Below are positions 231 to 31,228 of a stretch of 47,585 bases of DNA, in pieces. Under the pieces are notes generated by a model. That model made no database searches. It was given only the letters and a program-made list of their open reading frames with translations, and was not told the DNA's origin. The translations under genes and the position numbers were made by a program. Positions within the stretch are counted from its first letter, which is position 1; each line of letters begins with the position of its first letter. Origin of the DNA: Actinomycetota bacterium (GTDB lineage: Bacteria > Actinomycetota > Acidimicrobiia > Acidimicrobiales > Poriferisodalaceae); assembly GCA_002724355.1 (NCBI GenBank), contig PBOM01000057.1, positions 75,894-123,478 of the forward strand. Direction: 5' to 3'.

Positions 231-3200
231 TTAGTTCAATATTTCTTTCGCAGCTTGTCTAAATTTTTCGACGTTGGCTTCTTTGACACCTTCGTAGCCG
301 CGAATCATGTCGGGCAACTCAGCTATGCGTAACGCCTTGTCGTAACTGTCTAGGTGAAGATCTGCTACCACTGCTTCGATCATCCCCTGGTATTCGTCTA
401 CCAAGCCTCGTTCCATCTTGCGATGAGCGGTATTGCCGAAGATATCTAGCGGAGTTCCGCGCAGGAACTTCATTCGGCGAAGTACGGCGAATGCAACGTC
501 GCCCGAGCGGCCAAGCCCGATTTTTTGTTCAAGTCCGAGTCGCTTCATAGAGGGGGGATGCAGCTTGTAGGTGACTTTGCTTCGATCTCCGAACTGGTCG
601 CGGACTGCTTGTTGGAATGCCTTGGACCGGTGAAGTCGTGCGACTTCGTATTCGTCTTTATAGGCCATCAACTTGTAGAGGTAACGGGCATAAGCTTCAG
701 ACAATCGCGTATCTTGTCCGACGCTCGCTTCAGCCGTTCTCACTGCACTGACTCTTTCTACGTAGACCTTTGCATATTTAATGTTTTGGTACTCAACAAG
801 GTCTGGCACTCGGATTCGCAGCAGTCGTTCAAGTTCTTCAGATGGTTCCGGAACGGAGTCGATGAGAACCTGAAGGGCTTCGGACACATTGTTTTTCCGG
901 CTGACTTTCCCGACCCGTTCAATCCCTAATTTCTCGATGAAGCCAGGCTCAAGCACTATTTGGCGGCCGATTCGAAACGCTTGGGTGTTCATTTCGACTG
1001 CAACGCCATTGAGTTCGATGGCGCGTTCTATCGCTGCTGAACTAATGGGTACTACTCCGCTCTGGTAAGCAGAGCCGAGGACGATGATGTTTGCAGGCAT
1101 GTGTGACCGGAACAGGTTGTCTGACAGGTTGCCAGCGTCGTAGTAGACATTTTTTTCGGGCACCGTAGCGCTATCGATTGATTGCTGTAGCGCTGACCAT
1201 TCTGGGTAGTCAGCTGAGGTGTCGCGAACCATCGCTCCCGTAGGAACTTTGCTGGAAGATACAAGTGCGACGGTGCGTCCCGGCATTGCCTTCTCAAGGT
1301 TGGCTGGGTTTGTGCCGCTCAACAGGTCGAACACAATGTACGCGTCTGCTTCTCCTGTGGCGATTTTGTTGGCTTCTCCTAGCTCTAGTTCACTGTCTGG
1401 ACGTCGAATCTTGAGGTTGGACACAACTGGGCCGCCTTTCTGAGCAAGGCCAGTTTGGTCAAGTCCGTGCGCTTCTTTGCCATCCAAAAGAGCTGCTGTA
1501 GCTAGTAGTTGGTTGACCGTAACGACACCGGTTCCGCCAATGCCGATCATCAAAACATTGCCTTCGTCAAGGCGGTTGGGTTCGGGTTGGTCGTCTTTGA
1601 TTTCGGCTACTGCCAGCGTCGACTTCTCAGGAACGACGCCAGCGGGCTCCACTTCTATAAATGCCGGGCAGTCGCCGTCAAGACAGGTGAAGTCCTTGTT
1701 GCAAGAAGATTGGTGGATAGCTGTCTTTCTACCGAACTCGGTTTCTACTGGCTGTACTGAAAGGCAGCTAGATTTTTCTCCGCAGTCTCCGCAACCTTCG
1801 CACACGGCTTCGTTGATGAACACCGCCATTGTTGGTTCGGCGACTTTGCCTCGTTTGCGATCGCGTCGTAATTCTGCTGCACATGGTTGGTCATATATCA
1901 AAACTGTGCATCCTGGCGTGTCGCGAAGGATTCGTTGTGCTTCGTCGAGACGGTCGCGATGCCACACTTCGGTACCTTCGGCGAAGTGTGGGTTTTCTCC
2001 ATATTTTTCGGTGTCATGGGTTAGGACCATGACCTTTGTGACTCCTTCGGCCTCAAGCGAACGAGTCAATTCTGGGACTGTCATTCCGCCGTCGACGTCC
2101 TGTCCACCGGTCATTGCAACGGCTGCGTTATAGAGGATTTTGTATGTGACGTTGGTGCCTGCAGCAACAGCTTGCCGAACGGCGAGCGATCCAGAGTGGT
2201 GGAATGTTCCGTCGCCAATGTTTTGGAATCGGTGCTCCATGGTGACAAACGGTGCAGCGCCGACCCATTGAACGCCTTCTCCTCCCATCTGGGTGGTGCC
2301 TTTCACGTTGCGGGTCGGTGTCATCGATGCCATGCCGTGACAGCCAATTCCCCCGCCAGCTTCAGAGCCTTCTGGGACCCAGGTGGAGCGGTTGTGGGGG
2401 CAGCCTGAACAGAAATTGGGTGTTCGGTTCGATTGTTTCTTGTCGTCGGGTTCACCAAGTGCCACCGGTATGGTGACGCGTTCACGTACGGCTGGGCCTA
2501 CTGCGTCTTCTCCCAACCGACCCACAAGGAATGGCCGAATTTTGCGTGCGATGAGGTCCGCGTCCATCTCGCCATGGCCGGGGAACCAGAACGAGTTTTC
2601 TGCGTCGCGTTTTCCAAGAATGGTTGGCGCGTCAGTAGTTCCATAAAGAATTTCGCGCATGAACATCTCGATGAAGGCTCGCTTTTCTTCGACTACGACA
2701 ATGGTGTCGAGACCTCGAGCGAATTCGCGGACGCCGTTGGCTTCAAGGGGCCAGACAACAGCTGGTTTGTAGAGCCTTACCCCGCGTTGTCTCAGGGCGG
2801 CTTCGTCAAGACCCATTCGATCCAGCGCTTCACGGAGGTCGTAATAAGTCTTCCCGGCTGCTACGAGGCCTATCCGGGCGTCGGAGGTAGCTCCGCATAC
2901 GGTGTCGAGTTGGTTGAGACGAGTGAATGCGTCGGTTGCCTCCATTCGACCTTCATGAATTTCCAGTTCTTGACGGACGGCGAAGGGTCCAAATAAGGCG
3001 TCCTGTTGGGTGTGTTGCCAGGGAGTGCCGTCCCATTCGAAGTCTGGGCGTTGCATCTGGACTCGACCGGGGCCTACCTTGATGGTTGAGTAGCCATCTG
3101 CCACGTTTGTCACAATTTTCAGTGACACCCATAGGCCGCTGTAACGCGAGAGTTCGTAACCAATGCGGCCGTAATCGGCCACCTCTTGAACGGTTCCCGG

Positions 3201-3716
3201 GTACAGGATGGGTGTTTGAAAATGAAGCAGCGCGAACTCAGATTCGGACGCCAGAGTTGATGATTTAGATGCGGGATCATCGCCCGCTACTAGTAGTACG
3301 CCGCCTTTAGGGTCAACTCCACATACGTTGGCGTGCCGGATAGCGTCACCGGAGCGATCCACACCGGGGGCTTTTCCGTACCACATCCCCAACACACCAT
3401 CGAATTTTCCATCGAAGTTGCGATTGGCTAATTGTGAGCCCCAAACGGTGGTAGCGCCAAGATCTTCGTTAAGGCCAGGAACGAACTGAATGTTGTTTTC
3501 GGCTAGTTCGTCAGCATTGCCGAGCATGAGGGAGTCGATGCCTCCCAAAGGGGAACCTCGGTAACCAGACACCATGGCAGCATTGTTCAGACCATCTCGT
3601 TTATCGGCGCGCAACTGGTCCAAAAGAACCCTCAGAAGCGCCTGAACTCCCGACATAGCGACGTCTCCCTCGCTACGTGTGAATCGATCCTCTAGTTTGA
3701 AGTCAGCTAACGCCAT
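231..3716 (-). CDS. indolepyruvate/2-oxoacid:ferredoxin oxidoreductase family protein, fused alpha-beta form
   Basis: Single 1161-aa ORF. It has a TPP-binding GDGTFHHSG...NAAVAMTGGQ block, a ferredoxin-type CEGCGDCGEKSSC cluster and the N-terminal YRGSPLGG block typical of fused IorA/IorB proteins. An AGGAGG-type SD lies just upstream of ATG 3716. Confidence 0.9.
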   Translation of the reverse strand: MALADFKLEDRFTRSEGDVAMSGVQALLRVLLDQLRADKRDGLNNAAMVSGYRGSPLGGIDSLMLGNADELAENNIQFVPGLNEDLGATTVWGSQLANRNFDGKFDGVLGMWYGKAPGVDRSGDAIRHANVCGVDPKGGVLLVAGDDPASKSSTLASESEFALLHFQTPILYPGTVQEVADYGRIGYELSRYSGLWVSLKIVTNVADGYSTIKVGPGRVQMQRPDFEWDGTPWQHTQQDALFGPFAVRQELEIHEGRMEATDAFTRLNQLDTVCGATSDARIGLVAAGKTYYDLREALDRMGLDEAALRQRGVRLYKPAVVWPLEANGVREFARGLDTIVVVEEKRAFIEMFMREILYGTTDAPTILGKRDAENSFWFPGHGEMDADLIARKIRPFLVGRLGEDAVGPAVRERVTIPVALGEPDDKKQSNRTPNFCSGCPHNRSTWVPEGSEAGGGIGCHGMASMTPTRNVKGTTQMGGEGVQWVGAAPFVTMEHRFQNIGDGTFHHSGSLAVRQAVAAGTNVTYKILYNAAVAMTGGQDVDGGMTVPELTRSLEAEGVTKVMVLTHDTEKYGENPHFAEGTEVWHRDRLDEAQRILRDTPGCTVLIYDQPCAAELRRDRKRGKVAEPTMAVFINEAVCEGCGDCGEKSSCLSVQPVETEFGRKTAIHQSSCNKDFTCLDGDCPAFIEVEPAGVVPEKSTLAVAEIKDDQPEPNRLDEGNVLMIGIGGTGVVTVNQLLATAALLDGKEAHGLDQTGLAQKGGPVVSNLKIRRPDSELELGEANKIATGEADAYIVFDLLSGTNPANLEKAMPGRTVALVSSSKVPTGAMVRDTSADYPEWSALQQSIDSATVPEKNVYYDAGNLSDNLFRSHMPANIIVLGSAYQSGVVPISSAAIERAIELNGVAVEMNTQAFRIGRQIVLEPGFIEKLGIERVGKVSRKNNVSEALQVLIDSVPEPSEELERLLRIRVPDLVEYQNIKYAKVYVERVSAVRTAEASVGQDTRLSEAYARYLYKLMAYKDEYEVARLHRSKAFQQAVRDQFGDRSKVTYKLHPPSMKRLGLEQKIGLGRSGDVAFAVLRRMKFLRGTPLDIFGNTAHRKMERGLVDEYQGMIEAVVADLHLDSYDKALRIAELPDMIRGYEGVKEANVEKFRQAAKEILN

Positions 3717-3793: not shown

Positions 3794-5029
3794 TCAAGCT
3801 CGATTGTTGTTACTGGGTAAGCGCGTCGCTAGCAGCAATGCAAGCCCGTTTGCTATGCCTGAAAGCAAGAAAGCCCATCTGTAGTTGCCCAAAGCGTCCC
3901 GCAATACCTGGGCTGTATAAGGACCAATAGCGGCCATAGTTCCCGCTGTGGCGAAGATTCTTCCGACGATAGAACCTGCGTGGGCGCGCCCAAAGAAGTC
4001 TGCGACGAGTGGGGGGAAGACCACCACTCCCCCTCCATAGGCAAATCCAAACGTTGCTGCCGATAGATACAGCAACCACAGCGAGTTAGCGCCAGCCATC
4101 CCGAGAAAAGAGGCTGTCTCTAAGAATAAGGCCAACATGACTGCATTTTTTCTGCCAATGCGATCGGAGACCGGCCCCATTACCAGGCGGCCGATGAGCC
4201 CTCCAATTCCTATCGCTGAGATCACAGTTGAGGCTGTTTGCAATGACGCGCCGAGGCTCTGAGCGAATTGCACGCCATGAACAAACGGAACGAAGACCGC
4301 AACGAAAGTAAGTGCGTACATCCCAAAAATTTTCCAATAGGTGCGACTCCTCCATGCTTCAGCAGGAGTCATCCCTTCTTCGAGATCCTCAGTTAGGCCA
4401 CCAGTTGGCTCAATTCGACCATCTGGTTTTTGGCCTACTCCTTCTGGGTCTCGTTCGAGAACAATCGAGCTCAGCAACATACAGACACCGCCCGTCAGCG
4501 ACATCGCCAGAATCGCAACCCGCCATCCATACGCTGATACGAGAACGGCTGCAATCGGGGGAACCAGGATGTTGGCAAGACTCCCGCCTGCGGTTGCTAT
4601 TGCTGTCGCGAATCCTCGTCTCACTACAAACCAGCGCACAACCGTTGCGTTGCATGGCACCCAAGAACAACTCATTCCAAGAGGAGCGACGATGGCCATT
4701 CCTATTGCGACGACGATGATGTTGTTTGCGGTAGCCCACAACAAGTACCCACTTGTGAGGAGGACCGCTCCCACTGCTACGACGGGCCTTGGCCCCATAC
4801 GGTCGGTCAGCCATCCGCTTATGGCAGATAATGCGCTGTATAGACCTATGTAGATAGCGAAGATCAGTTGGAGCCGATTTTCGGACCATCCCGTGTCATG
4901 AACCACGTCTCCCACGAAGGTGCCGAAGCTGAACTGGATTCCGTAAACGACGAACAGGACGGTGAATGCTGCGCCAACGATGCGCCACCCGAAGAATTTC
5001 TGTTCGACTGGCTTAACGGAGAAGATCAC
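3794..5029 (-). CDS. MFS transporter (oxalate/formate antiporter-like subfamily)
   Basis: 411 aa and hydrophobic throughout, with about 12 TM segments. It has an N-terminal WRIVGAAF...YGIQFSFGTF block and a GWLTDRMGPR loop (MFS motif A). GTG start lies 8 nt after the upstream stop. Confidence 0.85.
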   Translation of the reverse strand: MIFSVKPVEQKFFGWRIVGAAFTVLFVVYGIQFSFGTFVGDVVHDTGWSENRLQLIFAIYIGLYSALSAISGWLTDRMGPRPVVAVGAVLLTSGYLLWATANNIIVVAIGMAIVAPLGMSCSWVPCNATVVRWFVVRRGFATAIATAGGSLANILVPPIAAVLVSAYGWRVAILAMSLTGGVCMLLSSIVLERDPEGVGQKPDGRIEPTGGLTEDLEEGMTPAEAWRSRTYWKIFGMYALTFVAVFVPFVHGVQFAQSLGASLQTASTVISAIGIGGLIGRLVMGPVSDRIGRKNAVMLALFLETASFLGMAGANSLWLLYLSAATFGFAYGGGVVVFPPLVADFFGRAHAGSIVGRIFATAGTMAAIGPYTAQVLRDALGNYRWAFLLSGIANGLALLLATRLPSNNNRA

Positions 5030-5037
5030 GACGCCGA

Positions 5038-6183
5038 CTAGCGATCCCCCGGAGCCATATAAAACCAGATCGGATTATTTTCTCCAGCGTCGGCCATGGC
5101 TTGCCTCGCCGCCATGACTACTTTGCCAGCTTCAGTGTGATCTAGGAACCATCGGGTTCCCGCCCACGCTGACGGGGCGTGGTCTGATAACGCTAGAGCC
5201 GCTGTTTCGTAATATCCGCGAATGTCCTGACTCACTCGTGACGGAATTCCCGGTATCCCGGCCTCTTTCCATGAAGTACCTTCAGCAACTCTCACGAACG
5301 CTTCTATTGCGGTTGTTATGTCGTCAACTTGAACAGCTCTCCCGGCGCCAACTCGGTTCCCGTATTTGGCGATCGCGCGTTCATAGGCGGGCCTCAGCCC
5401 GTTGGCCTCGTCCACCGCTGGGTGAGCGTCGGGGTCATGGCGGGGAGGCATCGGGCACGCCAGAACTTCGCTTTCGTCGTCGGGAATAATGACGTCATAT
5501 TCAGCAAAGATGGGTTCTGGACTCTGCAGCATTTCGAATGCGGTTGCTAGGACCCGATGTTGAAATTCTGGATCGCCTGGAACTCCTAAGGGCCTACCCA
5601 GGGGAAAATCACACCAAAGACCGCGTGGCGGCGCGGTGCTCTCTATCTGATTCTTAATGGAGCCAAGGGCGACAGTGGCGATGCCTTCAGCTTCGAAAAT
5701 GTGGGCGAGCGTACTCACGGTACGCGTGCACAAGGGTCAAACAGGAGTTAACAGAACGATGTCAACACCCTGTTCTTTTAGGAATTTGGCTCCTGCGGGA
5801 CCGCTGTCCATTTTTATTGCAGATAGCTCAAATTGATTGCCCGCGTAGGCGAGATGTTCGTCTGCTACAGAGCCGATCACTCCTTGGGCAGCTAGTTCAT
5901 CTAAGCGGTCGATCGGAAAAACTGTATTGATATCTAGTGCGAATCCTGTTGCGTCGAAGTTAGGACTCCAATGCCCCATTACGTAGTCTCTTGTTTCAGA
6001 TTGCAGTACCCGATACCCCGTATCCGTCGGCGAGAAATCTTCGTCGTCGGGGTGATGTAGGGAGGCCGAAGTGACTATCGCCACCTTGGCCTCAGAGAGT
6101 GGTACAGGTTCGGTAAACGCTGTTTCGTCAAATTCGACTGCGTCGAGGTTCGCTGTCATCGCTTTAATATCGCTGTCGGCCAT
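5038..6183 (-). CDS. PrdB/GrdB-family (glycine/sarcosine/betaine/D-proline reductase component B-like) selenoprotein; UGA 5739..5737 decoded as Sec (148 aa + U + 232 aa = 381 aa)
   Basis: Track ORFs 5737..6183 and 5038..5733 are in the same frame and separated only by TGA. The joined sequence reads ...GVDIVLLTPV-U-PLCTRTVSTLAHIFEAEGIATVAL...PPRGLWCDFPLGRPLGVPGDP. The downstream half has no ATG or SD of its own. It carries a UxxC motif plus GrdB/PrdB-like blocks (INTVFPIDRLDELAAQGVIGS, EAEGIATV, PLGRPLG), and a hairpin follows the UGA. Confidence 0.7.
5701..5733 (-). other. putative bacterial SECIS-like hairpin immediately 3' of the in-frame UGA
   Basis: On the mRNA strand the core is GCGUAC(5725..5720)-CGUGA-GUACGC(5714..5709), a perfect 6-bp stem with a 5-nt loop containing GU. 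A possible lower GUG/CAC stem flanks it. The apical loop starts 17 nt after the UGA, within the spacing range used for bacterial SECIS elements. Confidence 0.4.
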
Positions 6184-6225: not shown

Positions 6226-7137
6226 CTATCGGCGGTCGACCGATAGCAGGGCGACACCTGTAACAACTAGTGCACCGCCAAGCATCTCGAAAGTTCCGAG
6301 CCGGTCACCGACGAGTAGCCAACTGAAGAGCACTCCGAAGAACGGTGTTAAGTACGCGACTGCAGCGCCTTGGATCGCGGGGGCACGTCGAAGCACACTT
6401 GCGAACAGGTAGAAGGTGACTGCAAGGGATGGGATACCTGCATAAAGCAAGGGCAGCGCTAGCCCCCATCCCATGGAGGTATCAGACCAGTCTTCTACGA
6501 ATGGAACAGCTAGGTGAAGACATATTGCAGAAAAGGTGATCTGAAGCGCGACCAACATCAATGGGCTGATTTCTAAGGCGCCGGGTAATCGTTTGTTGAG
6601 CACTGCTCCTGCTGCCCAACTGATACTAGAAATTAATGAAAAGACGATACCTAAGGTGGTGTTGCCAGACCCAAAGGCTGGGATAGCGAGGCATACCGCC
6701 CCGAACAGGCCGATTAGTAATCCGAAATAGCCCCGGCGTCCTGGTAGCTCAGTAAGAACTATCACTGCGATTATCGCTGTAAACAGCGGCATAGTTGCCG
6801 AAAGCATCGCTGCTAGGCCCGGCGAAAGACGCGAAATCCCGAGAACAAGGAAACCACTTGACACCGTCGTTATAGCAAGGGAGATCCACCAAACAGCCAT
6901 CCACTGTTGACGGTTTTGGGGCAACTTTTCTCCGCGAAGCATGGCTATTGCCAATAGAAAGGGAGCGCCCACAGATGTTCGAAGCGCGGCCAAAGCGAGT
7001 GGCGTGGTGTGGTCTAGAGCCCACTTCATCACGGTGTAGTTGAGTCCTATAAGTAGCGCTGTGAGTACGACCAGAGCAACTGTTATGGAACTAGAGGAGG
7101 CGGCAATTTTGGGTTCGAGCCCGCCCTGCTTCTTCAC
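6226..7137 (-). CDS. EamA/DMT-family transporter
   Basis: 303 aa with about 10 TM segments arranged as two EamA-like repeats. GTGA start/stop overlap with the upstream SDR gene. Confidence 0.85.
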   Translation of the reverse strand: MKKQGGLEPKIAASSSSITVALVVLTALLIGLNYTVMKWALDHTTPLALAALRTSVGAPFLLAIAMLRGEKLPQNRQQWMAVWWISLAITTVSSGFLVLGISRLSPGLAAMLSATMPLFTAIIAVIVLTELPGRRGYFGLLIGLFGAVCLAIPAFGSGNTTLGIVFSLISSISWAAGAVLNKRLPGALEISPLMLVALQITFSAICLHLAVPFVEDWSDTSMGWGLALPLLYAGIPSLAVTFYLFASVLRRAPAIQGAAVAYLTPFFGVLFSWLLVGDRLGTFEMLGGALVVTGVALLSVDRR

Positions 7138-7910
7138 GCTCCCTCTAAAAGATCGAGAGATCTTCTACGAAGTCGTCGCATCCCATTTAGCCACCGATCA
7201 GGGTCCGAAGCTTTGCGTTCTGTGTAGGTTTGGACTTCCGGGTGAGACAGGATCAGGAACTCTTCGTTACGCATCGCTTGCGTGATTTTGTCCGCGACGA
7301 AATCAGCTTCAACTATCCCATCGGTTCCACCGTCGCCCAGTTGTCGAGGCGCCATAGCGGTGTTGACTCCCTGAGGACATAGAACTGACACTCGGATACC
7401 GTCATCGCCGTGAGTTATAGCAAGGGTCTCAGCCAATTTGATGCATGCAGCTTTGGTGACTGAGTAAGGGGCTGAACCAACTGCTGCGAGAAGACCCGCT
7501 GCGCTCGCGGTGTGAACCAAATAGCCCTCTCCTTGTGCCGTCATGGAAGGCAACACAGCGCGAGCGGCATACACATGAGACATTACGTGCAGTTCCCATT
7601 GTGACTGCCAAGCCTCGTTGGAAGCCTCTACGCCTCCTTCTGCCCCTGCGCCGGCATTCGAAAAGAAGATGTCGACCGGGCCGTTTGCGGTTTCAGTATC
7701 GTCAACGAGTTGACTTACAGCCTCTTCATTGGTGACGTCTAGACCCACGCCAACGCATCCAAGTTCTTCAGCTACTTGAAGTGCTGCTGCTTCGTTGTAG
7801 TCAGCCACCACTACTTGCCTAGCGCCCTCTGACATCCATTTGCGGGCTGTTGCCGATCCAATGCCGCCACCGCCGCCGGTGATAATTGCTACACGATCTT
7901 TAATTTCCAT
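7134..7910 (-). CDS. SDR-family oxidoreductase
   Basis: Rossmann motif ITGGGGGIGSA, NAG motif (FSNAGAG) and catalytic YSVTK (YxxxK); 258 aa. Confidence 0.9.
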   Translation of the reverse strand: MEIKDRVAIITGGGGGIGSATARKWMSEGARQVVVADYNEAAALQVAEELGCVGVGLDVTNEEAVSQLVDDTETANGPVDIFFSNAGAGAEGGVEASNEAWQSQWELHVMSHVYAARAVLPSMTAQGEGYLVHTASAAGLLAAVGSAPYSVTKAACIKLAETLAITHGDDGIRVSVLCPQGVNTAMAPRQLGDGGTDGIVEADFVADKITQAMRNEEFLILSHPEVQTYTERKASDPDRWLNGMRRLRRRSLDLLEGA

Positions 7911-7944: not shown

Positions 7945-8781
7945 TTAACTTTCGGCAACTCCGTTTTTGGTTCTCATCGCCGCATAGGCAACCTCATCTG
8001 ATTGCGCTGCACCTAGAAACCTGCCCGGGCTCGCCCCATCAACGTGGCCCATGATGCCTTTATACAGAGTGAACCCACACAAAGAAGCCAAACGCTCAGG
8101 CATCTCTTTCACATCTTGAGGGGAAAGGCTGTAGTACTGGTTTTGTTGCTGACGCATATACCCCTGGCAGTATTGAACGCTGATTCCTAATCTCCAGTCA
8201 TCTTGTGTGGTGTTGGCACCACCGCAATGCCAAGTTCCGCCGTTGACAATCAGAATTGACCCGGCTTCCATCTCCGCGGGTATGTGTTGCACCTCTTCCC
8301 CTTTGCGGGGTTCGTGGTCAAATTTATGGGAGCCGGGGACTATGCGAGTGGCTCCATTGTCAGCCGTAAAGTCGGTAAAGGCCCAAATGGTGGTCACCAT
8401 GAATGGAATCCGAGGCCTACTCACGCTTACCAGACCATCGTCGCTGTGCAACCCCTGGTGGACTTCTCCAGGACCTATATGCATGCACGTGGTTCCAGAC
8501 AGGAGACACTCCTCATCTAGCAAGTGTTCGGCGAAGGGAAGCACGTTGTGATGAACGGGAAGCTTCCAGAACACCCGGTCCTTAGCTAACAAGTTGTACA
8601 TGCGCTTAGTAGCGAAGCCCTCCGCTCGGTTTCCTCGGGGTTGCACATCATGTTCTTTTTCCAACTGAGTTACCGAGTTTCTGACCTCTTCGAGCAAATC
8701 TTGGTCGATGGCATTTTTTACGATGCAGTAGCCCTGTTCTTCTATGAGGTCGAGATAACCAGACAGTGTCGCTGAATCCAT
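7945..8781 (-). CDS. phytanoyl-CoA dioxygenase (PhyH) family Fe(II)/2-oxoglutarate oxygenase
   Basis: HxD (GLHSDDG) plus a distal His (GTWHCGGAN) form the facial triad, and length and sequence are PhyH-like. The start is placed at ATG 8781 (MDSATLSGYL...) because the track's longer ORF (to 8943) would overlap the divergent gene. Confidence 0.8.
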   Translation of the reverse strand: MDSATLSGYLDLIEEQGYCIVKNAIDQDLLEEVRNSVTQLEKEHDVQPRGNRAEGFATKRMYNLLAKDRVFWKLPVHHNVLPFAEHLLDEECLLSGTTCMHIGPGEVHQGLHSDDGLVSVSRPRIPFMVTTIWAFTDFTADNGATRIVPGSHKFDHEPRKGEEVQHIPAEMEAGSILIVNGGTWHCGGANTTQDDWRLGISVQYCQGYMRQQQNQYYSLSPQDVKEMPERLASLCGFTLYKGIMGHVDGASPGRFLGAAQSDEVAYAAMRTKNGVAES

Positions 8782-8838
8782 GCACCGATTCTTACAGCTT
8801 GGGGACACCGTTCGCACTTTCCTGCGAGACTGATCCTT

Positions 8839-10197
8839 ATGAGTGCCCTGTCGCCACCTAGGCGGATGATTTTGAACGCATTCACTATGAACTGTGTGAG
8901 CCACATCCAACAAGGGATGTGGAGCAGAAATGACACTCGCCAAACCGAGTTCAATTCTTTGGAACCGTGGTTAGAGTTAGCCCGCATTGCCGAGAAGGGT
9001 TGTCTAGACACCATTTTTCTTGCTGATGTTATGGGTCTGTACGACAACTACGAGGACGGAGCCGATACGTCTTTTAGGGAAGCCATGCAGGTCCCCGTTA
9101 ACGACCCCATGCTTCTTATTCCGGCCATGGCTTCAGTCACTCGACATCTAGGGTTTGCGTTCACAAGTTCCGTCTTGCAAGCCCATCCGTTTACCTTTGC
9201 TCGCCAGTTGTCGACTTTGGACCACTTGACAGAAGGCCGAGTGGCATGGAATGTCGTTACCTCCTATCTACCGAACGCTGGCAGCAACCTCGGTTTTGAT
9301 GGTTTGCCGCCACACGATGAACGTTATGAGCGAGCCGAAGAATATTTAGAGGTCGTGTACAAGCTCCTTGAGGGAAGCTGGGCCGACGATGCCGTGGTCC
9401 ATGACCGAGATCGGCGCGTTTACGCAGAGCCCGACCGTGTTCGCGCGATCAATCATCGCGGCCCTTACTTCCAGGTGGCTGGGCCCCACCTTTCCTCACC
9501 GTCTCCTCAACGAACGCCGGTGCTTTTCCAGGCTGGTATGTCCGAACGAGGCCGGACGTTCGCGGCTCAGCACGCAGAATGCATTTTTGTTGTGGGGTCA
9601 TCTCGTAGCGCAGCAACCTTGGCACAGGATTTACATAAGCGAGCTCACCTTCAAGGGCGGTCAAACACCGACATGAGACTTATTGGAGGGGTAGCGCCCA
9701 TTGTCGGAGGAACAGAGAGTGAAGCTTTAGATAAGCAAGCTGATTATGAAGAAAGTCTTTCTATCGAGGCAGGATTGGCTCATATCAGCGGGAACCTCGG
9801 GGTTGATCTGGGCGGTATCGACCCAGATCAACCTCTAGAGAGCTTTCGAACCGAACGAGTTCAAGGATTCATCAAGAACCTGCTCGACTCAGCACCGGCT
9901 GGCACTAGGACTATGGGCGATTTGATCAAGTCAAATTTAGCTGGAGCCTGGCTTACGGGATCCGTTGAGCAAGTGGCAGACGAATTGGAGCGACGATTTC
10001 ACAGCGGCTTGGACGGGTTTAACCTCACCTATACGGTGACCCCAGGAACCTTTGTTGACTTCATAGAAGGGGTAGTGCCAATCCTCCAGGAAAGAGATTT
10101 AGTTCAACGCGAATACGCGTCAGGCACACTCCGAAAAAAACTATTCGGACAAGATCGTCTTCCCTCGAGCCACCCTGCGGCCGCTGTTCGCTTTTAA
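8839..10197 (+). CDS. LLM-class flavin-dependent monooxygenase, NtaA/SnaA/DszA (group C) family
   Basis: 452 aa. The N-terminal LNAFTMNCVSHIQQGMW block is characteristic of NtaA/DszA-type monooxygenases. The real start may be the ATG at 8866 (MILNAF...). Confidence 0.85.
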   Translation: MSALSPPRRMILNAFTMNCVSHIQQGMWSRNDTRQTEFNSLEPWLELARIAEKGCLDTIFLADVMGLYDNYEDGADTSFREAMQVPVNDPMLLIPAMASVTRHLGFAFTSSVLQAHPFTFARQLSTLDHLTEGRVAWNVVTSYLPNAGSNLGFDGLPPHDERYERAEEYLEVVYKLLEGSWADDAVVHDRDRRVYAEPDRVRAINHRGPYFQVAGPHLSSPSPQRTPVLFQAGMSERGRTFAAQHAECIFVVGSSRSAATLAQDLHKRAHLQGRSNTDMRLIGGVAPIVGGTESEALDKQADYEESLSIEAGLAHISGNLGVDLGGIDPDQPLESFRTERVQGFIKNLLDSAPAGTRTMGDLIKSNLAGAWLTGSVEQVADELERRFHSGLDGFNLTYTVTPGTFVDFIEGVVPILQERDLVQREYASGTLRKKLFGQDRLPSSHPAAAVRF

Positions 10198-23182: not shown

Positions 23183-23845
23183 TTATCGTTTACGGCGACG
23201 CAGCAGAACCAACACCAAAGCTACGAGAGCAAAGGGGCCGAACCTTTTGAATAAAGGTGCGCCGGCGGTATCGAGCAAATCAACAGGTTCCGGTTCTGGC
23301 ATGTCTATCTTTCGTGGACCGTTCTGATTCGTTTCGGTCTCACCGCCAGAAGAAGAGTTCGCTGGTTCACTCGCTGTTTGCTGTTCTGCATTATCGGGAG
23401 AGGATTCGAGCAGTTTCTGTTCGAGACTCTCGACAAATTGGCCAATCAGTTTTTCGGAAACGTCAGCCATAACGCCTCTGCCGAACTGAGCGACTTTTCC
23501 GGTTACTTTCAGTTCGGTGGTGATTACGATTTTTGTTCCGTCACCATCTTCAGTCATCTCCGCTGTGACCTCAGCAGCTGCGTTGCCAGCTCCGCGTGTG
23601 TCACGCCCGCTCGCGTCGAGAACTACTCGGTAGTCACTTTCGTTCTTTTCTTTGAACTTAGCTACACCTTTATATTGAGCAGTAATTGGTCCTACTTTGA
23701 CCTTTACTTGGCCCTTGAATTCTTCGCCGTCAATTTCCGTGAGCTGGGCTCCTGGCATACAGGGAGCTATGTATTCAACATCTGTCAGTGTCGCCCACGC
23801 TCGTTCGATAGGAACACCCACTCGGAATTCGTTTTTCAATTCCAT
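23183..23845 (-). CDS. coxG: CoxG-like SRPBCC protein with acidic linker and C-terminal membrane anchor
   Basis: N-terminal 145 aa show the CoxG/SRPBCC pattern (FRVGVPIERAWATLTDVEYIAPCMPGAQL...VGPITAQYKG). A low-complexity acidic/Ser-rich tail follows, ending in the hydrophobic segment FALVALVLVLL followed by RRRKR. Confidence 0.75.
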   Translation of the reverse strand: MELKNEFRVGVPIERAWATLTDVEYIAPCMPGAQLTEIDGEEFKGQVKVKVGPITAQYKGVAKFKEKNESDYRVVLDASGRDTRGAGNAAAEVTAEMTEDGDGTKIVITTELKVTGKVAQFGRGVMADVSEKLIGQFVESLEQKLLESSPDNAEQQTASEPANSSSGGETETNQNGPRKIDMPEPEPVDLLDTAGAPLFKRFGPFALVALVLVLLRRRKR

Positions 23846-24426
23846 CGTCTGAGATCCTCCACAGTATCTACGTCATCAGAAGAGCCTTCGCAGGCTACCT
23901 GCTTAACCAAGTCCGGCCTAGCACGGATCAAAACTCGAGCCCCTTCATCTCCTGTGGAAGGAAGCGAAGACCATACGGACTTTTCTAAACGCACAGGATT
24001 TCCTGGTTTCCCGTCATAGGTGGCTACCGCTATCGGCGAATTCGTCTGCGCCAGGAGACCCCAAGCAGAACTCGGGACCCCGGGCTGATCCCCTAATCCA
24101 ACTACCAAGGCGTCGAAATCATGGGCCAGGGCCCATGCGGTCGCAGCGTTGAGAGATGTTGCGATCCCTTGATCAAATTGCGGATTTTCAACAATTTGGA
24201 GTTCCGTAAACTGGGTTAGAGCTTTACTTAACTCAACCGCTCCGGTTACGACCGCGTAGCCGTCCAGAGTCGACTCTGTCATCGATCGAGCCGCGTGGGT
24301 TACTAGTGGTTCGCCACGCAGGTTGGTTAGGAGCTTGTGTTCAGGATCAATGAATCGTGATCCGGTTCCGGCCGCGAGTAGAACGCCTGCTACTTTCACG
24401 GACTCAGTACGAGCGAGGCAAGCCAA
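23836..24426 (-). CDS. MobA-like NTP-transferase (molybdenum cofactor cytidylyltransferase MocA-like)
   Basis: GVLLAAGTGSRF nucleotide-binding loop, about 190 aa. The start is uncertain: TTG 24426 overlaps the ACAD 3' end by 23 nt, and GTG 24399 is the alternative. Confidence 0.75.
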   Translation of the reverse strand: MACLARTESVKVAGVLLAAGTGSRFIDPEHKLLTNLRGEPLVTHAARSMTESTLDGYAVVTGAVELSKALTQFTELQIVENPQFDQGIATSLNAATAWALAHDFDALVVGLGDQPGVPSSAWGLLAQTNSPIAVATYDGKPGNPVRLEKSVWSSLPSTGDEGARVLIRARPDLVKQVACEGSSDDVDTVEDLRRWN

Positions 24427-25570
24427 GAACTTTGTTCGAGACGTAGTTCAGTACCATTTCTTGGCTTACGGGAGCGATTTTCATGAGACGGCTTTCACGC
24501 CAGTACCGTTCGACGTCGTACTCTTTCGCATAGCCGAATCCCCCGTGGGTCTGCATGGCCCGATCCGCACATTCAAATGCTGCTTCTGAGGCTAGATACT
24601 TCGCGAGATTCGCCTGGGCGCCGCAATCTAGGCCGCTGTCATAGCGCCATGAAGCTTCTCTAATTACGAGTTCGGCTGCGTGAAGTCGCGCATGACTATC
24701 AGCAAGAGGGAATGCCAAGCCCTGGTTCTGACCAATAGGTCGCCCGAATATGACTCGGTCATTGGCATAGTCAACGGCTTTCCTCAGCGCTGCCCTACCT
24801 ATTCCTAGCGCTTCTGCGGAGATGAGAATGCGTTCCGGGTTTAAGCCGTCCAGGATGTAACGGAAGCCTTCGCCTTCCTCGCCAACCCTACGGCTCACGG
24901 GTACCCGCAAACCGTCGTAACGAACTTCACATGAAACGACTGCGTTTCGCCCAACTTTGGGAATCGGTGTTATGTCAACGCTTGGATCCTTGAGGTCAAC
25001 AAGTAGGAGAGTCATTCCCTGCGTCGGACCATCACAGAGCTCTTTGGGGGTAGTTCGAACTAGCAGCAAACAAACGTCGCAGTAGGGAGCCTTTGTGGTC
25101 CAAACTTTCGCTCCAGTTATGACGTATTCATCTCCGTCTCGCTCAGCTCGGGTTCTAATCGAAGTAGTGTCAGTGCCTGCGTCGGGTTCTGTCACACCAA
25201 AAGCTGCGTGAAGTGAACCGTCGGCAACTTTGGGGAGTATTTCGTTTGCTAGCTCCGGGGAACCATATTTTCGGATCGGCTCCATGCCAAAGATCGACAA
25301 GTGGATTGCTGAGCAGCCATTCATCGCAGCTCCACTAGCAGCAACTTCTTCTAGGACTATCGAAGCTTCGGTAATACCTTGGCCTCCGCCTCCGAATTCC
25401 TCCGGGATGGCAATACCTACCCATCCTCCATCAGCCATTGCCTGGTAGAAATCCCATGGAAATTCGTGTTGTTCGTCTTTTTCTCGCCAGTACTCGTCAG
25501 GGAACTGTGCGCAAACACGCCTTACGCCTTCTCGGATGGCTTCGTGGTCTTCAGCTACGGAAAAGTCCAT
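24404..25570 (-). CDS. acyl-CoA dehydrogenase
   Basis: 388 aa with the ACAD signature AFGVTEPDAGTD and a C-terminal helical domain ending ...RYWRESRLMKIAPVSQEM. Confidence 0.9.
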   Translation of the reverse strand: MDFSVAEDHEAIREGVRRVCAQFPDEYWREKDEQHEFPWDFYQAMADGGWVGIAIPEEFGGGGQGITEASIVLEEVAASGAAMNGCSAIHLSIFGMEPIRKYGSPELANEILPKVADGSLHAAFGVTEPDAGTDTTSIRTRAERDGDEYVITGAKVWTTKAPYCDVCLLLVRTTPKELCDGPTQGMTLLLVDLKDPSVDITPIPKVGRNAVVSCEVRYDGLRVPVSRRVGEEGEGFRYILDGLNPERILISAEALGIGRAALRKAVDYANDRVIFGRPIGQNQGLAFPLADSHARLHAAELVIREASWRYDSGLDCGAQANLAKYLASEAAFECADRAMQTHGGFGYAKEYDVERYWRESRLMKIAPVSQEMVLNYVSNKVLGLPRSY

Positions 25571-25604
25571 ATCAAGAAAGGTAGTGGGCGCTGAGCGAAT
25601 TGGC

Positions 25605-26390
25605 TCAGTGAATCGAACCTTTGGCGTCGCTCAAGCTTGGAGCGTTGCGACCCGTTCGCAGCGCGATGATCTCCGCGACGATTGACACTGCTGTTTCTTC
25701 AGGTGTTCTACCCCCGATATCTAGACCAATAGGAGATTTGACTCGTTGTAGTTCCTCGGCCGTGGCCCCCTCCTCTAGGAGCCTTTCGAGCCTCTTTTCG
25801 TGCGTTTGACGCGATCCCATAGCACCGAGATAACCCACGCGTGTTGGTAATGAGCTCATAATCGCTGGAACGTCGAATTTTGCATCGTGGGTTAAGACAC
25901 ACACTGCATCTCTAGGGCCCAGGTCGTTGCCGATACGAGCCAGCAAACGATCGGGCCAGTCCACGACGACTTCATCTGCCATTGGAAAACGACGGCGGGT
26001 CGCAAATACTTCTCTTGCGTCGCACACAGTCACCCGAAAGCCGAGCAGTTTTCCCTGGCTCGCCAAAGCACGAGTGAAGTCAACTGCTCCGAATATCACG
26101 AGGTGGGGGCGTCGGGCATGACATTCGATAAACACACTTAAGTCGTGTTGGCGAGCTTCTCCCTGGGACCCATAGTGACGGACTTCGCTTGTGCCGGCTT
26201 CAAGCATGGCTATTGCATCGCGTCGCACTACTCGGTCTAGCTCTTCTCCCCCGAGGCTGCCCAGCGAGAATCCTGATTCTTCTACCAGGAGCTTCGCTCC
26301 TAGGTTCGGCCCCTCAACGAGTGTCGCGAGGGCTACTGGAATTTCAGCGCGGATCGAGTCTCGAAATCGTTCGTAAATGGGCGTTACCAA
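25605..26390 (-). CDS. XdhC/CoxF-family molybdoenzyme maturation protein, C-terminal two-thirds (second XdhC_CoxI-like segment plus Rossmann domain)
   Basis: ALATLVEGPNLGAKLLV...GSLG...VFIECHARRPHLVIFGAVDF...GFRVTVCDAR. The TTG start is embedded in the AATTGGTAA stop region of the upstream ORF. Confidence 0.8.
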   Translation of the reverse strand: MVTPIYERFRDSIRAEIPVALATLVEGPNLGAKLLVEESGFSLGSLGGEELDRVVRRDAIAMLEAGTSEVRHYGSQGEARQHDLSVFIECHARRPHLVIFGAVDFTRALASQGKLLGFRVTVCDAREVFATRRRFPMADEVVVDWPDRLLARIGNDLGPRDAVCVLTHDAKFDVPAIMSSLPTRVGYLGAMGSRQTHEKRLERLLEEGATAEELQRVKSPIGLDIGGRTPEETAVSIVAEIIALRTGRNAPSLSDAKGSIH

Positions 26391-26701
26391 TTGAGTTCCT
26401 CAATGAAGAGGTGGATAGTTCCACCACAAGTCAATCCCACTGCAAAGGCCTCGTCGTCGCTGTAGCCGAACGTGGTAATTCCAGCTGTTCTGCGTCCCTC
26501 GAGGAGTTCGATTGCTTCGCCGACGACAGCTCCCTCGACGCAACCTCCTGAGACGGAACCGGCTACTTCGCCAGCCTCATTGACCGCCATCGCGGCGCCA
26601 GGATCTCTCGGACCGCTCCCTTCAATGTCCACCACACGTGCAACAGCAACTTTTTGTCCTTTGGTAAGCCATCGCTCGATGTCGTCGAAAATCTCATCCA
26701 T
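26384..26701 (-). CDS. XdhC/CoxI N-terminal domain protein (105 aa)
   Basis: VAVARVVDIEGSGPRDPGAAMAVNEAGEVAGSVSGGCVEGAV...GLTCGGTIHLFIE is the canonical N-terminal XdhC_CoxI domain. Confidence 0.75.
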   Translation of the reverse strand: MDEIFDDIERWLTKGQKVAVARVVDIEGSGPRDPGAAMAVNEAGEVAGSVSGGCVEGAVVGEAIELLEGRRTAGITTFGYSDDEAFAVGLTCGGTIHLFIEELNW

Positions 26702-26719
26702 ACCGTAATGCTCCCATGT

Positions 26720-27856
26720 TTACGCCGATACGGCTTCTGCAAGTCGCTCTAAGGATTCGAAAGAGTGTCCTTCTATGAAATCATCCGTATGCGGCAAAGC
26801 CGCGGCCATTCCACCCGCTAGAGGCGCATAGCCCGGTGTGTGCTTGAGCGGATTAACCCAAACCTGTCGGTGGCTTACACGATGTAGGCGCTGCATCTGT
26901 TCGCCAAGAAGCTCTGGCTCGCCCCGATCCCAGCCGTCGGACAAAAGCACGACGATCGCTCCTCTAGCCATGCCCCTGAGGCCCCAAAGTTCGTTGAATT
27001 CTTTCAGGGTCGCACCGAGCCGCGTCCCTCCCGACCAGTCGGTGACAGCTCCTGACGCGGCTCGAAGAGCAGCATCAGGGTCTCGTGAGGAAAGTTCTCT
27101 GGTAATTCGAGTCAGTCGCGTACCTATTGCAAAGGCTTCCACCCGGGTTCTTCCAACTACGGTTGCATGAGCGAACCTAATTAGAGCTCGAGCGTACGGC
27201 TCCATCGAGCCTGAAACATCGATTAGCAACACCAGACGACGTGGACGGCGATCTCTTTGAACGAACTTTCGGTGTATTGGTTCACCACCCATCGATATTG
27301 CGCTTCTAAGGGTTCTCCGCATATCTGGGTGCCGAGTCTGATACTTGGTAGGTAACCGCCGTCGCGATGGACGCAGACTTGATGTAAATCGGAGACTCCC
27401 CATCAAACGTCTAAGTTCGTCTAATTCTTGCTCGTCGCATTCAGCGAAGTCTTTGTCCTTTAGCGTTTCAGTCGGGCTGTATCGAAGTTGAAGGGTCGGT
27501 CCGTGGTCTTCGTCAATTTGAGGGTCGACATCAGCCGCTTCTTCGTCACTGTCCGTCGCAATCGATACCGAAATTGCAGGCAGCTCAACATCGAGACCTG
27601 ACGGACGTTTTCTTTCCCAAAAAACTTCAAAAGCCCTGTTATACAATTCGATGTCTTCAGGATCTGAAATCAAGGTAGCTCGTCCAGCCCAGTAGACGGA
27701 GTGGCGTTCGCTCAACCCAACCCAACCAAGGGCCTGCACAAACGACATCACTCTGCTCAGCGGGACTTCTATCCCCAGTCCGCGCAACAGCTGACTAAAG
27801 CCGGCGGCTATTCGCGCCGGGTTAGAGATCAGTTCGTCATTCGGAGTTTCATCCAT
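26720..27856 (-). CDS. coxE: VWA-domain protein CoxE
   Basis: MIDAS motif LLIDVSGSM, about 378 aa. It lies immediately downstream of, and overlaps, the MoxR ATPase gene. Confidence 0.85.
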   Translation of the reverse strand: MDETPNDELISNPARIAAGFSQLLRGLGIEVPLSRVMSFVQALGWVGLSERHSVYWAGRATLISDPEDIELYNRAFEVFWERKRPSGLDVELPAISVSIATDSDEEAADVDPQIDEDHGPTLQLRYSPTETLKDKDFAECDEQELDELRRLMGSLRFTSSLRPSRRRLPTKYQTRHPDMRRTLRSAISMGGEPIHRKFVQRDRRPRRLVLLIDVSGSMEPYARALIRFAHATVVGRTRVEAFAIGTRLTRITRELSSRDPDAALRAASGAVTDWSGGTRLGATLKEFNELWGLRGMARGAIVVLLSDGWDRGEPELLGEQMQRLHRVSHRQVWVNPLKHTPGYAPLAGGMAAALPHTDDFIEGHSFESLERLAEAVSA

Positions 27857-28754
27857 TTGCTGCAGCAGCCATGATCATTTCTATCCCCTGCCCTGAAACC
27901 CGTTCTTGATCTTCTCGGTATTTCAGCACAGTGCCCAGCGTTGCTTTGATGGTCTCTTCAGTCAGTATTGACTCCCCCAGTTTCCCCAGCGCAGTTGACC
28001 AATCAATGGTTTCGGCGACTCCTGGTGGTTTGTACAAACCCATTCCTCTCATTGCCTGAACGGCAAGCGCTACCTGGCGCGCGAGCGCCGCATCGGCCTC
28101 TGGTGATTTAAGGCGAATAATTTCGATTTCTCGTTCGAGGTCTGGATGGTTGACCCAGTGGTACAGGCAACGTCTTTTGAGCGCATCGTGTACGTCTCGC
28201 GTTCGATTTGATGTCACAACAACAAGGGGCGGTTTTCCACTGCCTAAAGTTCCTAATTCAGGGATCGTGACTGAGTGGTCCGAGAGAACTTCCAGCAAGA
28301 AGGCTTCAAACTCGTCGTCTGCTCGGTCGACTTCATCGACCAGAAGCACCGGCCTATGTTCCCCGCTGTAATCGATGGCCTGAAGTAACGGACGGCGGAT
28401 GAGAAAACGATCGGAGTACAACTCATCTTCGATCGCCTCCGAGTCGCTTTCGGCTCTTCCTGAGGCTTCCGCTGTTCTGAGATGCAGTAGTTGGCGGGTG
28501 TAGTCCCACTCGTACAGCGCTTGAGAAGCATCGATACCTTCATAGCATTGGAGTCGGATCAGCTCTCCCCCAGTCCAAGCAGCCAAAACTTTCGCTAGTT
28601 CGGTTTTTCCTACTCCCGCATCGCCTTCAAGAAATAGGGGGCGTTGCATCGTCATTGCTAAGTAGACCACTGTAGATAGACCTTCGTCGGTCAAGTAGTT
28701 GTGGTCGCTTAACGCTGCGGACACTGCTGCGGGTGAGTCGGGAAAGTTAAACAT
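27849..28754 (-). CDS. coxD: MoxR-type AAA+ ATPase CoxD
   Basis: Walker A GDAGVGKTELAK and Walker B LLVDEVDRA; 301 aa. Confidence 0.9.
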   Translation of the reverse strand: MFNFPDSPAAVSAALSDHNYLTDEGLSTVVYLAMTMQRPLFLEGDAGVGKTELAKVLAAWTGGELIRLQCYEGIDASQALYEWDYTRQLLHLRTAEASGRAESDSEAIEDELYSDRFLIRRPLLQAIDYSGEHRPVLLVDEVDRADDEFEAFLLEVLSDHSVTIPELGTLGSGKPPLVVVTSNRTRDVHDALKRRCLYHWVNHPDLEREIEIIRLKSPEADAALARQVALAVQAMRGMGLYKPPGVAETIDWSTALGKLGESILTEETIKATLGTVLKYREDQERVSGQGIEMIMAAAANG

Positions 28755-28864
28755 GCGCCAATCAGAATACGGGCTGTGACCGATTTAGCTCCTATTGGTA
28801 GTTCATTCGACACAACGCTCCTATTTGGAGATATGTTGCCGCCAAGGATTTGAAGGGAACAAAA

Positions 28865-29611
28865 ATGGATCTTGGGATCAGTGGACGAACGGCAGCCATA
28901 GCAGCGGGATCTGCAGGCCTGGGTCTTGGCGCCGCCAAAGCTTTATCCGCGGAGGGAGTTCGAGTTGCTATTTGCGGTCGTGATAGCGCAAAACTCGAAG
29001 AAGCTGCAGTTGCTATCGGTGGTGATGTCATCGCCCTTGAAGCAGATCTGTCGACACCTAGTTCAGGACGCGATTTTGTTGAACAGGCCACTTCAGAGCT
29101 AGGGCAACTAGACATTCTCGTAACGAACGCTGGTGGTCCTCCGCCGGGGACGTTCGAGAACACTGATCTCGACGCTTATCAGGCGGCGTTCGATATGAAT
29201 TGCAGAGCAATGATCGAGATGTGCCGCACAGCAATTCCCGCTATGCGCGAACGCGGTTGGGGCAGGGTATGCGCGATAACGAGCGTCGGGGTTAAACAAC
29301 CAATCGAATACCTGATGGCGAGTTCAGTTGCTCGTGCGGGCCTGACCAGCTTTCTGAAAATCACGGCTCGGGAGGTTGCCGCTGACGGAGTCACGATCAA
29401 CTCGGCGCAGCCTGGAACTCATTGGACTGACAGGGTCGCGAAAATAGTTCCGAACAAAGAGACAGCGGCTTCTACGGTTCCTGCGCGTATCACAGGCGAT
29501 GCAGACGATTTTGGCTCCGCTGTCGCGTTCCTGTGCTCTGAACAAGCAAAGTTCATCACGGGGACCGGCTTGCTCATTGACGGAGGACAAGCATCCGGAC
29601 TCCTTGATTAA
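28865..29611 (+). CDS. SDR-family oxidoreductase
   Basis: AAGSAGLGLG Rossmann variant and NAGGPP. ATG 28865 is preceded by AAGGGA at about 8 nt, whereas the track starts at TTG 28850. Confidence 0.85.
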   Translation: MDLGISGRTAAIAAGSAGLGLGAAKALSAEGVRVAICGRDSAKLEEAAVAIGGDVIALEADLSTPSSGRDFVEQATSELGQLDILVTNAGGPPPGTFENTDLDAYQAAFDMNCRAMIEMCRTAIPAMRERGWGRVCAITSVGVKQPIEYLMASSVARAGLTSFLKITAREVAADGVTINSAQPGTHWTDRVAKIVPNKETAASTVPARITGDADDFGSAVAFLCSEQAKFITGTGLLIDGGQASGLLD

Positions 29612-29669
29612 GACAAGGTTCTGATGACCGTCAGCCTAGGTAAGGGCTGGTTGGTTCAATTTCTCGGAG

Positions 29670-30497: not shown

Positions 30498-30509
30498 CTA
30501 TTTGGCCTT

Positions 30510-30977
30510 TCAACTCACGTCTTGGCCGCTACATGCCAAGACTGCTTTAACGATGTTGTGATAGCCAGTGCACCGGCAGAGATTTCCTTCAAGGCCTTCT
30601 CGTACTTCGGCTTCACTGGGAGAGGGATTTTCGTCTAGTAACGAACATGCAGCCATAACCATGCCAGGCGTGCAATAGCCACATTGAAGGCCATGGTTGT
30701 CCTGGAAGCTTTGCTGCATGGGGTGTAGCTCATCAGCGGAGGGAGCTAAGCCCTCGATGGTTGTCACTTCCTGCCCGTCGGCTTGCACAGCAAGCATCGT
30801 GCAGGACTTCACTGATTCTCCGTTGACGTGAACGGTGCATGCGCCACAAGAAGATGTATCGCATCCCACGTTCGTGCCTGTGAGCCCTAATTCATCGCGT
30901 AAGTAATAGACGAGCAAAGTTCGCGGTTCGACTTCACTTGACTGGTTGGCACCATTTACGGTGACGCTGATTTCCAC
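30510..30977 (-). CDS. [2Fe-2S] small subunit of a CODH/xanthine dehydrogenase-family molybdoenzyme (CoxS-like)
   Basis: Two cluster motifs: [11 protein letters not shown] and CGYCTPGM...CRCTGY. The start is set at GTG 30977 (MEISVTVNG), preceded by GGAGGAAGGGG. Confidence 0.92.
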
Positions 30978-31228
30978 AGTTGTCCCCTTCCTCCAACAGT
31001 AGGGCGGCAATTAGCCGGCCCCAATCATGCCCTATGAAAGGACACAGTGCCTCACTGAATGCAGGACTTCTTTGGTCGATTCCACCTATTTATTTTTTTG
31101 CAGGGTTTGGGCATGGGGACATGTCGTTCCGACGCTGAATAGAAGGCCAGTCGCCACTCAGAAAAATTTTGTTGATTTCGTTGGCTATGACCATCTATTT
31201 CGAATCACATTTAGATAAGTTTTGGGGG

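Follow-up and report, generated by a model that had tools for sequence, protein, structure and literature searches.

The closest described relatives of the gene examined here are the B subunits of the D-proline and glycine reductases, and a set of marine sequences published under the first of these names. PrdB of C. difficile carries an essential selenocysteine (Sec) at residue 151 (PMC11229817). In marine data, "Proline reductase PrdB", with a UxxC motif and the domain pfam07355, ranked third in abundance among the selenoprotein families of the Sargasso Sea, with 42 genes (Zhang, Fomenko & Gladyshev 2005, PMC1088965), and "PrdB" was again among the top families of the Global Ocean Sampling (GOS) survey, with 235 Sec against 110 cysteine (Cys) sequences (Zhang & Gladyshev 2008, PMC2398784). 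Here we analyze a stretch of 47,585 nucleotides (nt) from an Actinomycetota bacterium of the Poriferisodalaceae (assembly GCA_002724355.1, contig PBOM01000057.1, positions 75,894 to 123,478), referred to below as the window. On its minus strand, positions 6183..5038 very probably form a single gene for a 381-residue selenoprotein of the PrdB-like branch of the GRDB superfamily, with Sec insertion directed by a selenocysteine insertion sequence (SECIS).

By sequence comparison, the window gene is the marine Acidimicrobiia orthologue of the Sargasso and GOS "Proline reductase PrdB" selenoproteins. The two groups are the same family with the same Sec context (LTPVUPLCTRT). GOS read JCVI_READ_1332426 (...LLTPVUPLCTRTVSTLAHIFEAAG...) is 74% identical to the window protein over 93 amino acids (aa), JCVI_READ_1280943 is 46.5% identical over 316 aa, C-terminal domain included, and the Sargasso entry AACY01584242 contains VVLLTPVuPLCTRT; the published lists give each of these three the name selenoprotein PrdB. 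The selenoprotein status was therefore already known, since direct relatives stand in the supplementary sequence lists of 2005 and 2008, and the novelty implied by a preliminary description of this DNA, made from the sequence alone, does not hold, the family having been published as a marine selenoprotein (PMC1088965, PMC2398784). The reads in those papers were unassigned and the name was accepted at face value, whereas the window gene is full length and can be placed in Acidimicrobiia genomes together with an operon and a SECIS. What is new here is the full-length architecture, the attribution to cosmopolitan marine Acidimicrobiia, a SECIS with comparative support, the operon context, and grounds for thinking that the published name is probably mistaken.

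The reading frame (5038..6183, minus strand) opens with ATG at 6183..6181, closes with TAG at 5040..5038, and spans 381 codons with only one internal stop, the TGA at 5739..5737 (codon 149). The preliminary description had joined two adjacent open reading frames (ORFs) across this codon and held that the second merely begins at a TTG just past it. Its coordinates were correct, and the first codon of the listed downstream ORF (5038..5733) is indeed a TTG, codon 151 of the joined gene. We read the UGA (5737..5739, minus) as Sec, U149, the first residue of a U-P-L-C motif whose partner Cys152 is encoded at 5728..5730 (minus). The protein around the UGA reads ...GVDIVLLTPV-U-PLC-TRTVSTLAHIFEAEGIATV, its upstream letters also being given as EQGVDIVLLTPV. 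Two domains can be distinguished, a PrdB-like domain at approximately residues 12–220 and a family-specific C-terminal domain of ~160 residues (~225–381) for which no Pfam match was found. C191 and C243 are among the near-invariant residues. The family-specific C-terminal domain, aligned to residues 195–365 of the Cys homologue P0100, was also observed at residues 656–823 of the much larger protein P0319 (1019 aa), which suggests that it forms an independent module. TGA is the commonest normal stop in the window (19 of 44 genes) and is internal to no other gene among the 44 examined. A scan of the window and related loci for further genes with in-frame TGA returned off-frame artefacts only, so that no second selenoprotein adds independent evidence.

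Profile searches were run on the translation with Cys placed at residue 149. Pfam GRDB (PF07355) was matched above its gathering cut-off (26.4 bits against 22) by residues 12–146 on model positions 205–345 of 347, a match that stops just before the Sec. The best NCBIfam match, PrdB (TIGR04483), aligns residues 27–220 with model positions 25–219 (E = 5e-34) and spans the TGA, and through this alignment U149 falls within ~2–3 positions of U151 of C. difficile PrdB. Of 73 full-length homologues, 61 have Cys at the TGA column, 9 have Gly, 2 Ser, and 1 Ala, while the second Cys, Cys152 of the window protein, is invariant (73/73). The site reads LTPV-C-Px-C-TRT in the five full-length homologues closest to the window protein. 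The PrdB alignment across the TGA, the Cys homologues, and the SECIS-type hairpin described below together uphold the earlier proposal of a Sec in the UxxC motif of a PrdB/GrdB-like protein, at the Sec site of component-B reductases. It was also observed that the 12 homologues with Gly, Ser, or Ala at the catalytic column (alignment A5, P0100 residue 150) retain the second Cys, and from their sequences these may be non-catalytic or differently acting paralogues.

Database matches included hundreds of ~226-aa C-terminal fragments, 72–88% identical and named "hypothetical protein", which are split calls of the Sec forms, as the preliminary description had anticipated of automatic gene callers. 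The full-length database homologues are 380–460 aa long at ~50% identity, and the Joint Genome Institute (JGI) name for homologues is "D-proline reductase (dithiol) PrdB". An exhaustive search of 50%-identity representatives returned 2226 relatives; many of the best 150 are partial, being either N-terminal halves that stop immediately before the Cys/Sec or C-terminal halves whose first residue lies ~8–10 residues past it. Since split halves are so abundant among the representatives, the Sec forms must be at least as diverse as the Cys forms in this subfamily.

Downstream of the UGA, after a spacer of 11 nt, lies a SECIS-type hairpin of 17 nt (5709..5725, minus), composed of a 5' arm GCGUAC (5725..5720), a loop C-GU-G with a bulged A (5719..5715), and a 3' arm GUACGC (5714..5709). 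The case for it is comparative. Codons 153–159 (ACG CGT ACC GTG AGT ACG CTC) are nearly frozen in 77 orthologs, while flanking synonymous sites are free; the normalised synonymous entropy falls to 0.08 here, lower than in any other window of the gene, whose median is 0.83. The core CGTACCGTGAGTACG is unchanged in loci ranging from 45% to 73% GC content and is absent from the Cys-form genes of three loci (L083, L084, and L085), which encode the same peptide with other codons. In an alignment of 80 sequences, 98.6% of cells are paired, and compensatory double changes were found at three pairs: G-C to A-U (L056), U-A to C-G (L079), and the loop-closing C..G to G..C (L070 and L073, where the loop reads GGUC). 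None of 500 shuffles matched the observed pairing values, slid controls collapsed, and the RNAalifold consensus recovered the core stem.

The SECIS of E. coli fdhF offers a comparison for this element. Its loop is GGUC, and an 11-nt spacing together with an exposed GU in the small loop is required for SelB binding. The window hairpin likewise lies within the coding sequence, with an 11-nt spacer and GU in a small apical loop. It differs in its short stem (6 bp, to which a C-G closing pair may be added) and in having an unpaired A on the 3' side, where the fdhF type has a bulged U on the 5' side. We regard the candidate hairpin's resemblance to the fdhF element as a lead, not a test.

To follow the gene across genomes, we scanned with one genome per species and obtained 80 loci, mostly metagenome-assembled genomes binned as Acidimicrobiia. 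Represented among them are "Ca. Microthrix sp. UBA..." bins, MED-G01, MedAcidi-G1, Ca. Poriferisodalis, and several complete chromosomes. Chromosomes bearing the gene include NZ_OZ240249.1, NZ_OZ242363.1, NZ_OZ241975.1, NZ_OZ244781.1, and OZ220472.1, and metagenome-assembled genomes bearing it include DJZU01 (UBA6944), DBIA01 (UBA814), and NTLA01 (MED-G01). The TGA occupies the identical codon in all 78 loci that reach the site, with the halves always in frame, and the 77 complete orthologs have 381–382 codons, ATG or GTG at a shared start, and no further stop. Amino acid conservation is strong in both halves. The same 148 N-terminal residues, letter for letter, occur in the index of 301 independent assembly blocks, and a separate 226-residue call comes next in each of the five places shown. 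Four loci (L047, L051, L059, and L058), binned as Gammaproteobacteria/Pseudomonadales (GC 46–50%, contigs of 48–279 kb) and Planctomycetaceae, also bear the gene, with the same TGA (locus position 9995..9997) and an identical SECIS core; this could reflect either horizontal transfer of gene and SECIS together or mis-binning. In one further locus (L046), a paralogue of the selenoprotein, 34% identical, lies in tandem directly downstream, at about +773 from the TGA.

We then weighed other explanations for the gene. The best surviving of these, though still improbable, is that it encodes a true B subunit of D-proline (or glycine, sarcosine, or betaine) reductase whose partners are encoded elsewhere in the genome. 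PrdB is the best NCBIfam match, after all, and both the JGI labels and the selenoproteome papers use its name. Like PrdB of Clostridium sticklandii and Clostridioides difficile (TIGR04483), the window protein carries Sec at the equivalent place in a UxxC motif, with homology over residues 27–220; however, it is 381 aa long against ~240 aa (the PrdB model has 238 positions), owing to the extra conserved C-terminal domain, and no prdA, prdH, or prdC is adjacent to its gene. With GrdB, GrdF, and GrdH (PF07355, TIGR01918) it shares a UxxC-type motif and a Pfam GRDB score above the cut-off, but only the C-terminal third of GrdB (~430 aa) is matched, from model position 205 on, GrdB's N-terminal ~200 residues being missing here. 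The third Cys of UxxCxxC is also lacking (UPLCTRT), and no grdA, grdC, or grdE lies near the gene. Domains of PrdA, PrdC, PrdH, GrdA, GrdC, and GrdE were found in none of the 44+ window genes, the scanned conserved neighbour clusters of the 80 loci, or the called genes of the Cys-form locus L084.

The scores against the stricter models point the same way. The window protein reached 117.7 bits against the TIGR04483 equivalog cut-off of 300, 37.1 against 65.45 for TIGR01918, and 35–45 against 600–800 for the GrdB, GrdF, and GrdH models, of which approximately positions 205–380 were covered. Thus, of the family assignment in the preliminary description, the GRDB membership and the PrdB similarity stood, while the match fell short of the PrdB equivalog, TIGR01918, and GrdB/F/H cut-offs. 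Because these scores lie so far under the equivalog cut-offs, with no PrdA, GrdA, or GrdE nearby and an extra C-terminal domain, the window protein is orthologous to neither PrdB nor GrdB; it is a PrdB-like enzyme, not a strict D-proline or glycine reductase. The known PrdB systems belong to Stickland-fermenting anaerobes, whereas the hosts here are marine actinobacteria that we take to be aerobic heterotrophs. Given those hosts, the extra domain, and the lack of a PrdA partner nearby, the label "D-proline reductase" fits poorly, and the name "proline reductase" is probably wrong for the family.

Less likely still is that there are two real polypeptides, with the UGA ending a 148-aa protein and translation restarting at a TTG or GTG to give a protein of 226–231 aa that associates with the first half. 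In-frame starts do occur close downstream (TTG at codon 151 and GTG at codon 156), and split subunits are found elsewhere in the superfamily, where PrdA is cleaved. Yet the Cys-type homologues, at 380–460 aa, are single chains, and termination at the UGA would cost the protein a residue that all active relatives keep as Cys or Sec, and would part the site from Cys152. The TTG start is not conserved either, as codon 151 encodes Leu by CTG, CTC, or TTG and encodes Met in two loci. Two polypeptides would also leave the conserved GU-loop hairpin, 11 nt past the UGA, without a role.

We consider it very unlikely, slightly more so than two polypeptides, that the UGA is recoded to a residue other than Sec (e.g., Cys, Trp, or Gly) by a near-cognate or suppressor tRNA. 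Such recoding would suit the Gly found at this column in 9 of the 73 homologues, and the window and related loci yielded no Sec machinery. Against it, TGA serves as the commonest stop of the window and is internal in no other gene, the site is the Sec position of PrdB (U151; PMC11229817), and the hairpin has the geometry expected for a SelB-binding element. Indirect support comes from two further sources: a 2026 preprint reports that the 84 complete genomes of Actinomarina, from another Acidimicrobiia order (the Actinomarinales), all have selA, selB, selC, and selD (10.64898/2026.04.03.716425), and SelA and SelB co-occurred in most symbiont bins of a sponge-microbiome study that had two Acidimicrobiia in its full set of bins (PMC5649159). 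Actinobacteria have been counted among the selenoprotein-rich phyla (PMC1794560), and the statement in the preliminary description that selenoproteins are uncommon in Actinobacteria was therefore overstated (PMC1794560; 10.64898/2026.04.03.716425).

The idea of a pseudogene or an assembly or sequencing error, with the ORFs as remnants of a Cys-type gene broken by TGC/TGT->TGA, draws on the single base that separates TGA from TGC or TGT and on public annotations that keep the halves as separate or hypothetical proteins, but its probability is negligible, as all 78 species-level genomes share the TGA at this codon and show no further disruption of the gene, the identical split recurs in 301 independent assembly blocks, conservation is strong in both halves, and the downstream hairpin is under nucleotide-level selection of its own. 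The preliminary description had likewise thought a pseudogene unlikely. TGA is also a normal stop in the window, and the evidence effectively refutes pseudogenisation, sequencing error, and reassignment of the genetic code alike.

Several results weigh against a single SECIS-directed selenoenzyme and the function we attach to it below. ARAGORN found no tRNA-Sec in the window or in any of the 80 related loci (~20 kb each, 1.3 Mb in total), and tblastn with E. coli SelA, SelB, and SelD gave no match in the same sequences. Single-sequence folding yields the hairpin but does no better than shuffles (z from -0.9 to +0.65), and as these z-scores are not significant the SECIS case rests on the comparative data. 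These have weak points too: most stem pairs are invariant, the covariation comes from only 3–4 events, and the outermost stem pair is mismatched in 7 distinct sequences. Scanning the window with Rfam at gathering thresholds gave two tRNAs only and no SECIS family. The catalytic mechanism is drawn by analogy only, with neither a PrdA-type pyruvoyl partner nor a PDB relative to lean on: no PDB relative was found by sequence, and a fold search with the very confident AlphaFold model of the Cys homologue P0100 (pLDDT 96.3, pTM 0.94) gave no significant match (best E of 4.6e-3 with template modeling (TM) scores of 0.26–0.29) and hence no clue to function. Finally, the synteny of the neighboring genes is kept in only ~40% of loci, and about half have another context.

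In the window, the gene for the PrdB-like selenoprotein is part of a closely packed run of genes, all on the minus strand. This block begins with a short-chain dehydrogenase (SDR; 7134..7910), whose stop overlaps the start of an EamA/DMT-family transporter (6226..7137) lying 42 nt upstream of the selenoprotein gene. Downstream come a major facilitator superfamily (MFS) transporter of the oxalate/formate or lactate type (3794..5029) and a fused protein of the indolepyruvate/2-oxoacid:ferredoxin oxidoreductase (IOR) family (231..3716; 1161 aa, DUF6537; NF009589, 1418 bits). As the MFS gene starts before the selenoprotein gene ends, these genes probably form one operon, of which the SDR is the probable first gene. 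The block recurs in the window's own lineage and in the distant Poriferisodalis lineage. Across the 80 loci, the MFS gene is directly downstream in ~32–35, the IOR gene follows the MFS in 34, the SDR is conserved in 31, and the EamA transporter in 24. The neighbor counts in high-GC loci are lower bounds, because greedy ORF calling chose antisense shadow ORFs there (cluster 10). In the MedAcidi-G1 lineage, an amidase directly follows the selenoprotein gene.

Other genes near the block were noted as well. Downstream of the IOR-family gene, 22–28 loci carry a PALP gene (cystathionine beta-synthase-like) and a Cys_Met_Meta_PP gene (cystathionine gamma-lyase/synthase-like), a transsulfuration pair beside the block (clusters 4 and 7; e.g., L079 7340..8770 and L025 17035..18225); the window counterpart of this region falls beyond position 1. 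The Cys form has a different setting in L084 (9605..20856), which comprises EthD, the Cys-form gene, a GCV_H lipoyl carrier, a Leu/Ile/Val-type (amino-acid) ATP-binding cassette transporter, an amidase, and an AMP-binding enzyme. The same locus holds a second, short GRDB paralogue of 295 aa with the motif CPDCCRT. GCV_H was considered as a reductant partner, as it adjoins the Cys form in L084, and was dropped because it was found near no Sec-form locus.

Further along the window, a molybdenum-hydroxylase/carbon monoxide dehydrogenase-type accessory cluster (23183..31010, minus) was observed, with CoxG, a MobA-like protein, an acyl-CoA dehydrogenase, two XdhC, CoxE, and a CoxD-like AAA_5 protein, followed by a CoxM-like flavin (FAD) subunit (29670..30497) and a CoxS-like 2Fe-2S subunit (30510..31010); no large molybdopterin subunit is adjacent. 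The longest ORF of a PhyH-family gene (7945..8943, minus, 332 aa) overlaps a divergent NtaA/DmoA-type monooxygenase gene (8839..10197, plus) by ~100 nt. Public PhyH calls are 278 aa long, so the true PhyH start is probably further downstream.

If Sec decoding proceeds here as established for bacteria, SelB with Sec-tRNA(Sec) and guanosine triphosphate would recognise the hairpin on the translating mRNA, and selenocysteine would be inserted without termination. By analogy with PrdB and GrdB, whose chemistry we took as the model (PMC11229817, PMC13188914), U149 and C152 would form a selenol/thiol redox pair. The selenolate would attack a carbon of the substrate, cleaving a C-N or similar bond, and C152 would then resolve the adduct to a selenenylsulfide that a dithiol donor re-reduces. 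The selenoprotein gene is linked to the carboxylate-type MFS transporter and the 2-oxoacid:ferredoxin oxidoreductase in two lineages, and elsewhere to the amidase; this context hints, loosely, at the breakdown of imported derivatives of organic or amino acids. By analogy, then, we offer tentatively, as a possible but doubtful assignment, that the enzyme is a U149/C152 selenol/thiol reductase, breaking a C-N bond or one like it within an imported derivative of an organic or amino acid. D-proline is unlikely to be its substrate.

As a discovery, the selenoprotein adds little, the family and its Sec position having been in print since 2005/2008. The remaining interest lies in the function of an abundant and persistently mis-annotated ocean selenoenzyme. 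In hundreds of assemblies the gene is still annotated as two products, a GRDB fragment of 148 aa and a "hypothetical protein" of 226 aa, and as a result protein catalogues and metabolic reconstructions of marine Acidimicrobiia miss the full-length selenoenzyme. The SECIS, the full-length sequence, a confident homologue model, and the operon context now provide a starting point for tests of function. By a modest balance of the evidence, we favor the view that marine "PrdB" is a distinct, PrdA-independent selenoenzyme with its own ~160-residue C-terminal domain and near-invariant C191 and C243, present in cosmopolitan aerobic Acidimicrobiia and apparently in some other phyla, and acting on a marine substrate. 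If this is true, one of the most abundant selenoprotein families of the ocean would have been misnamed for 20 years.

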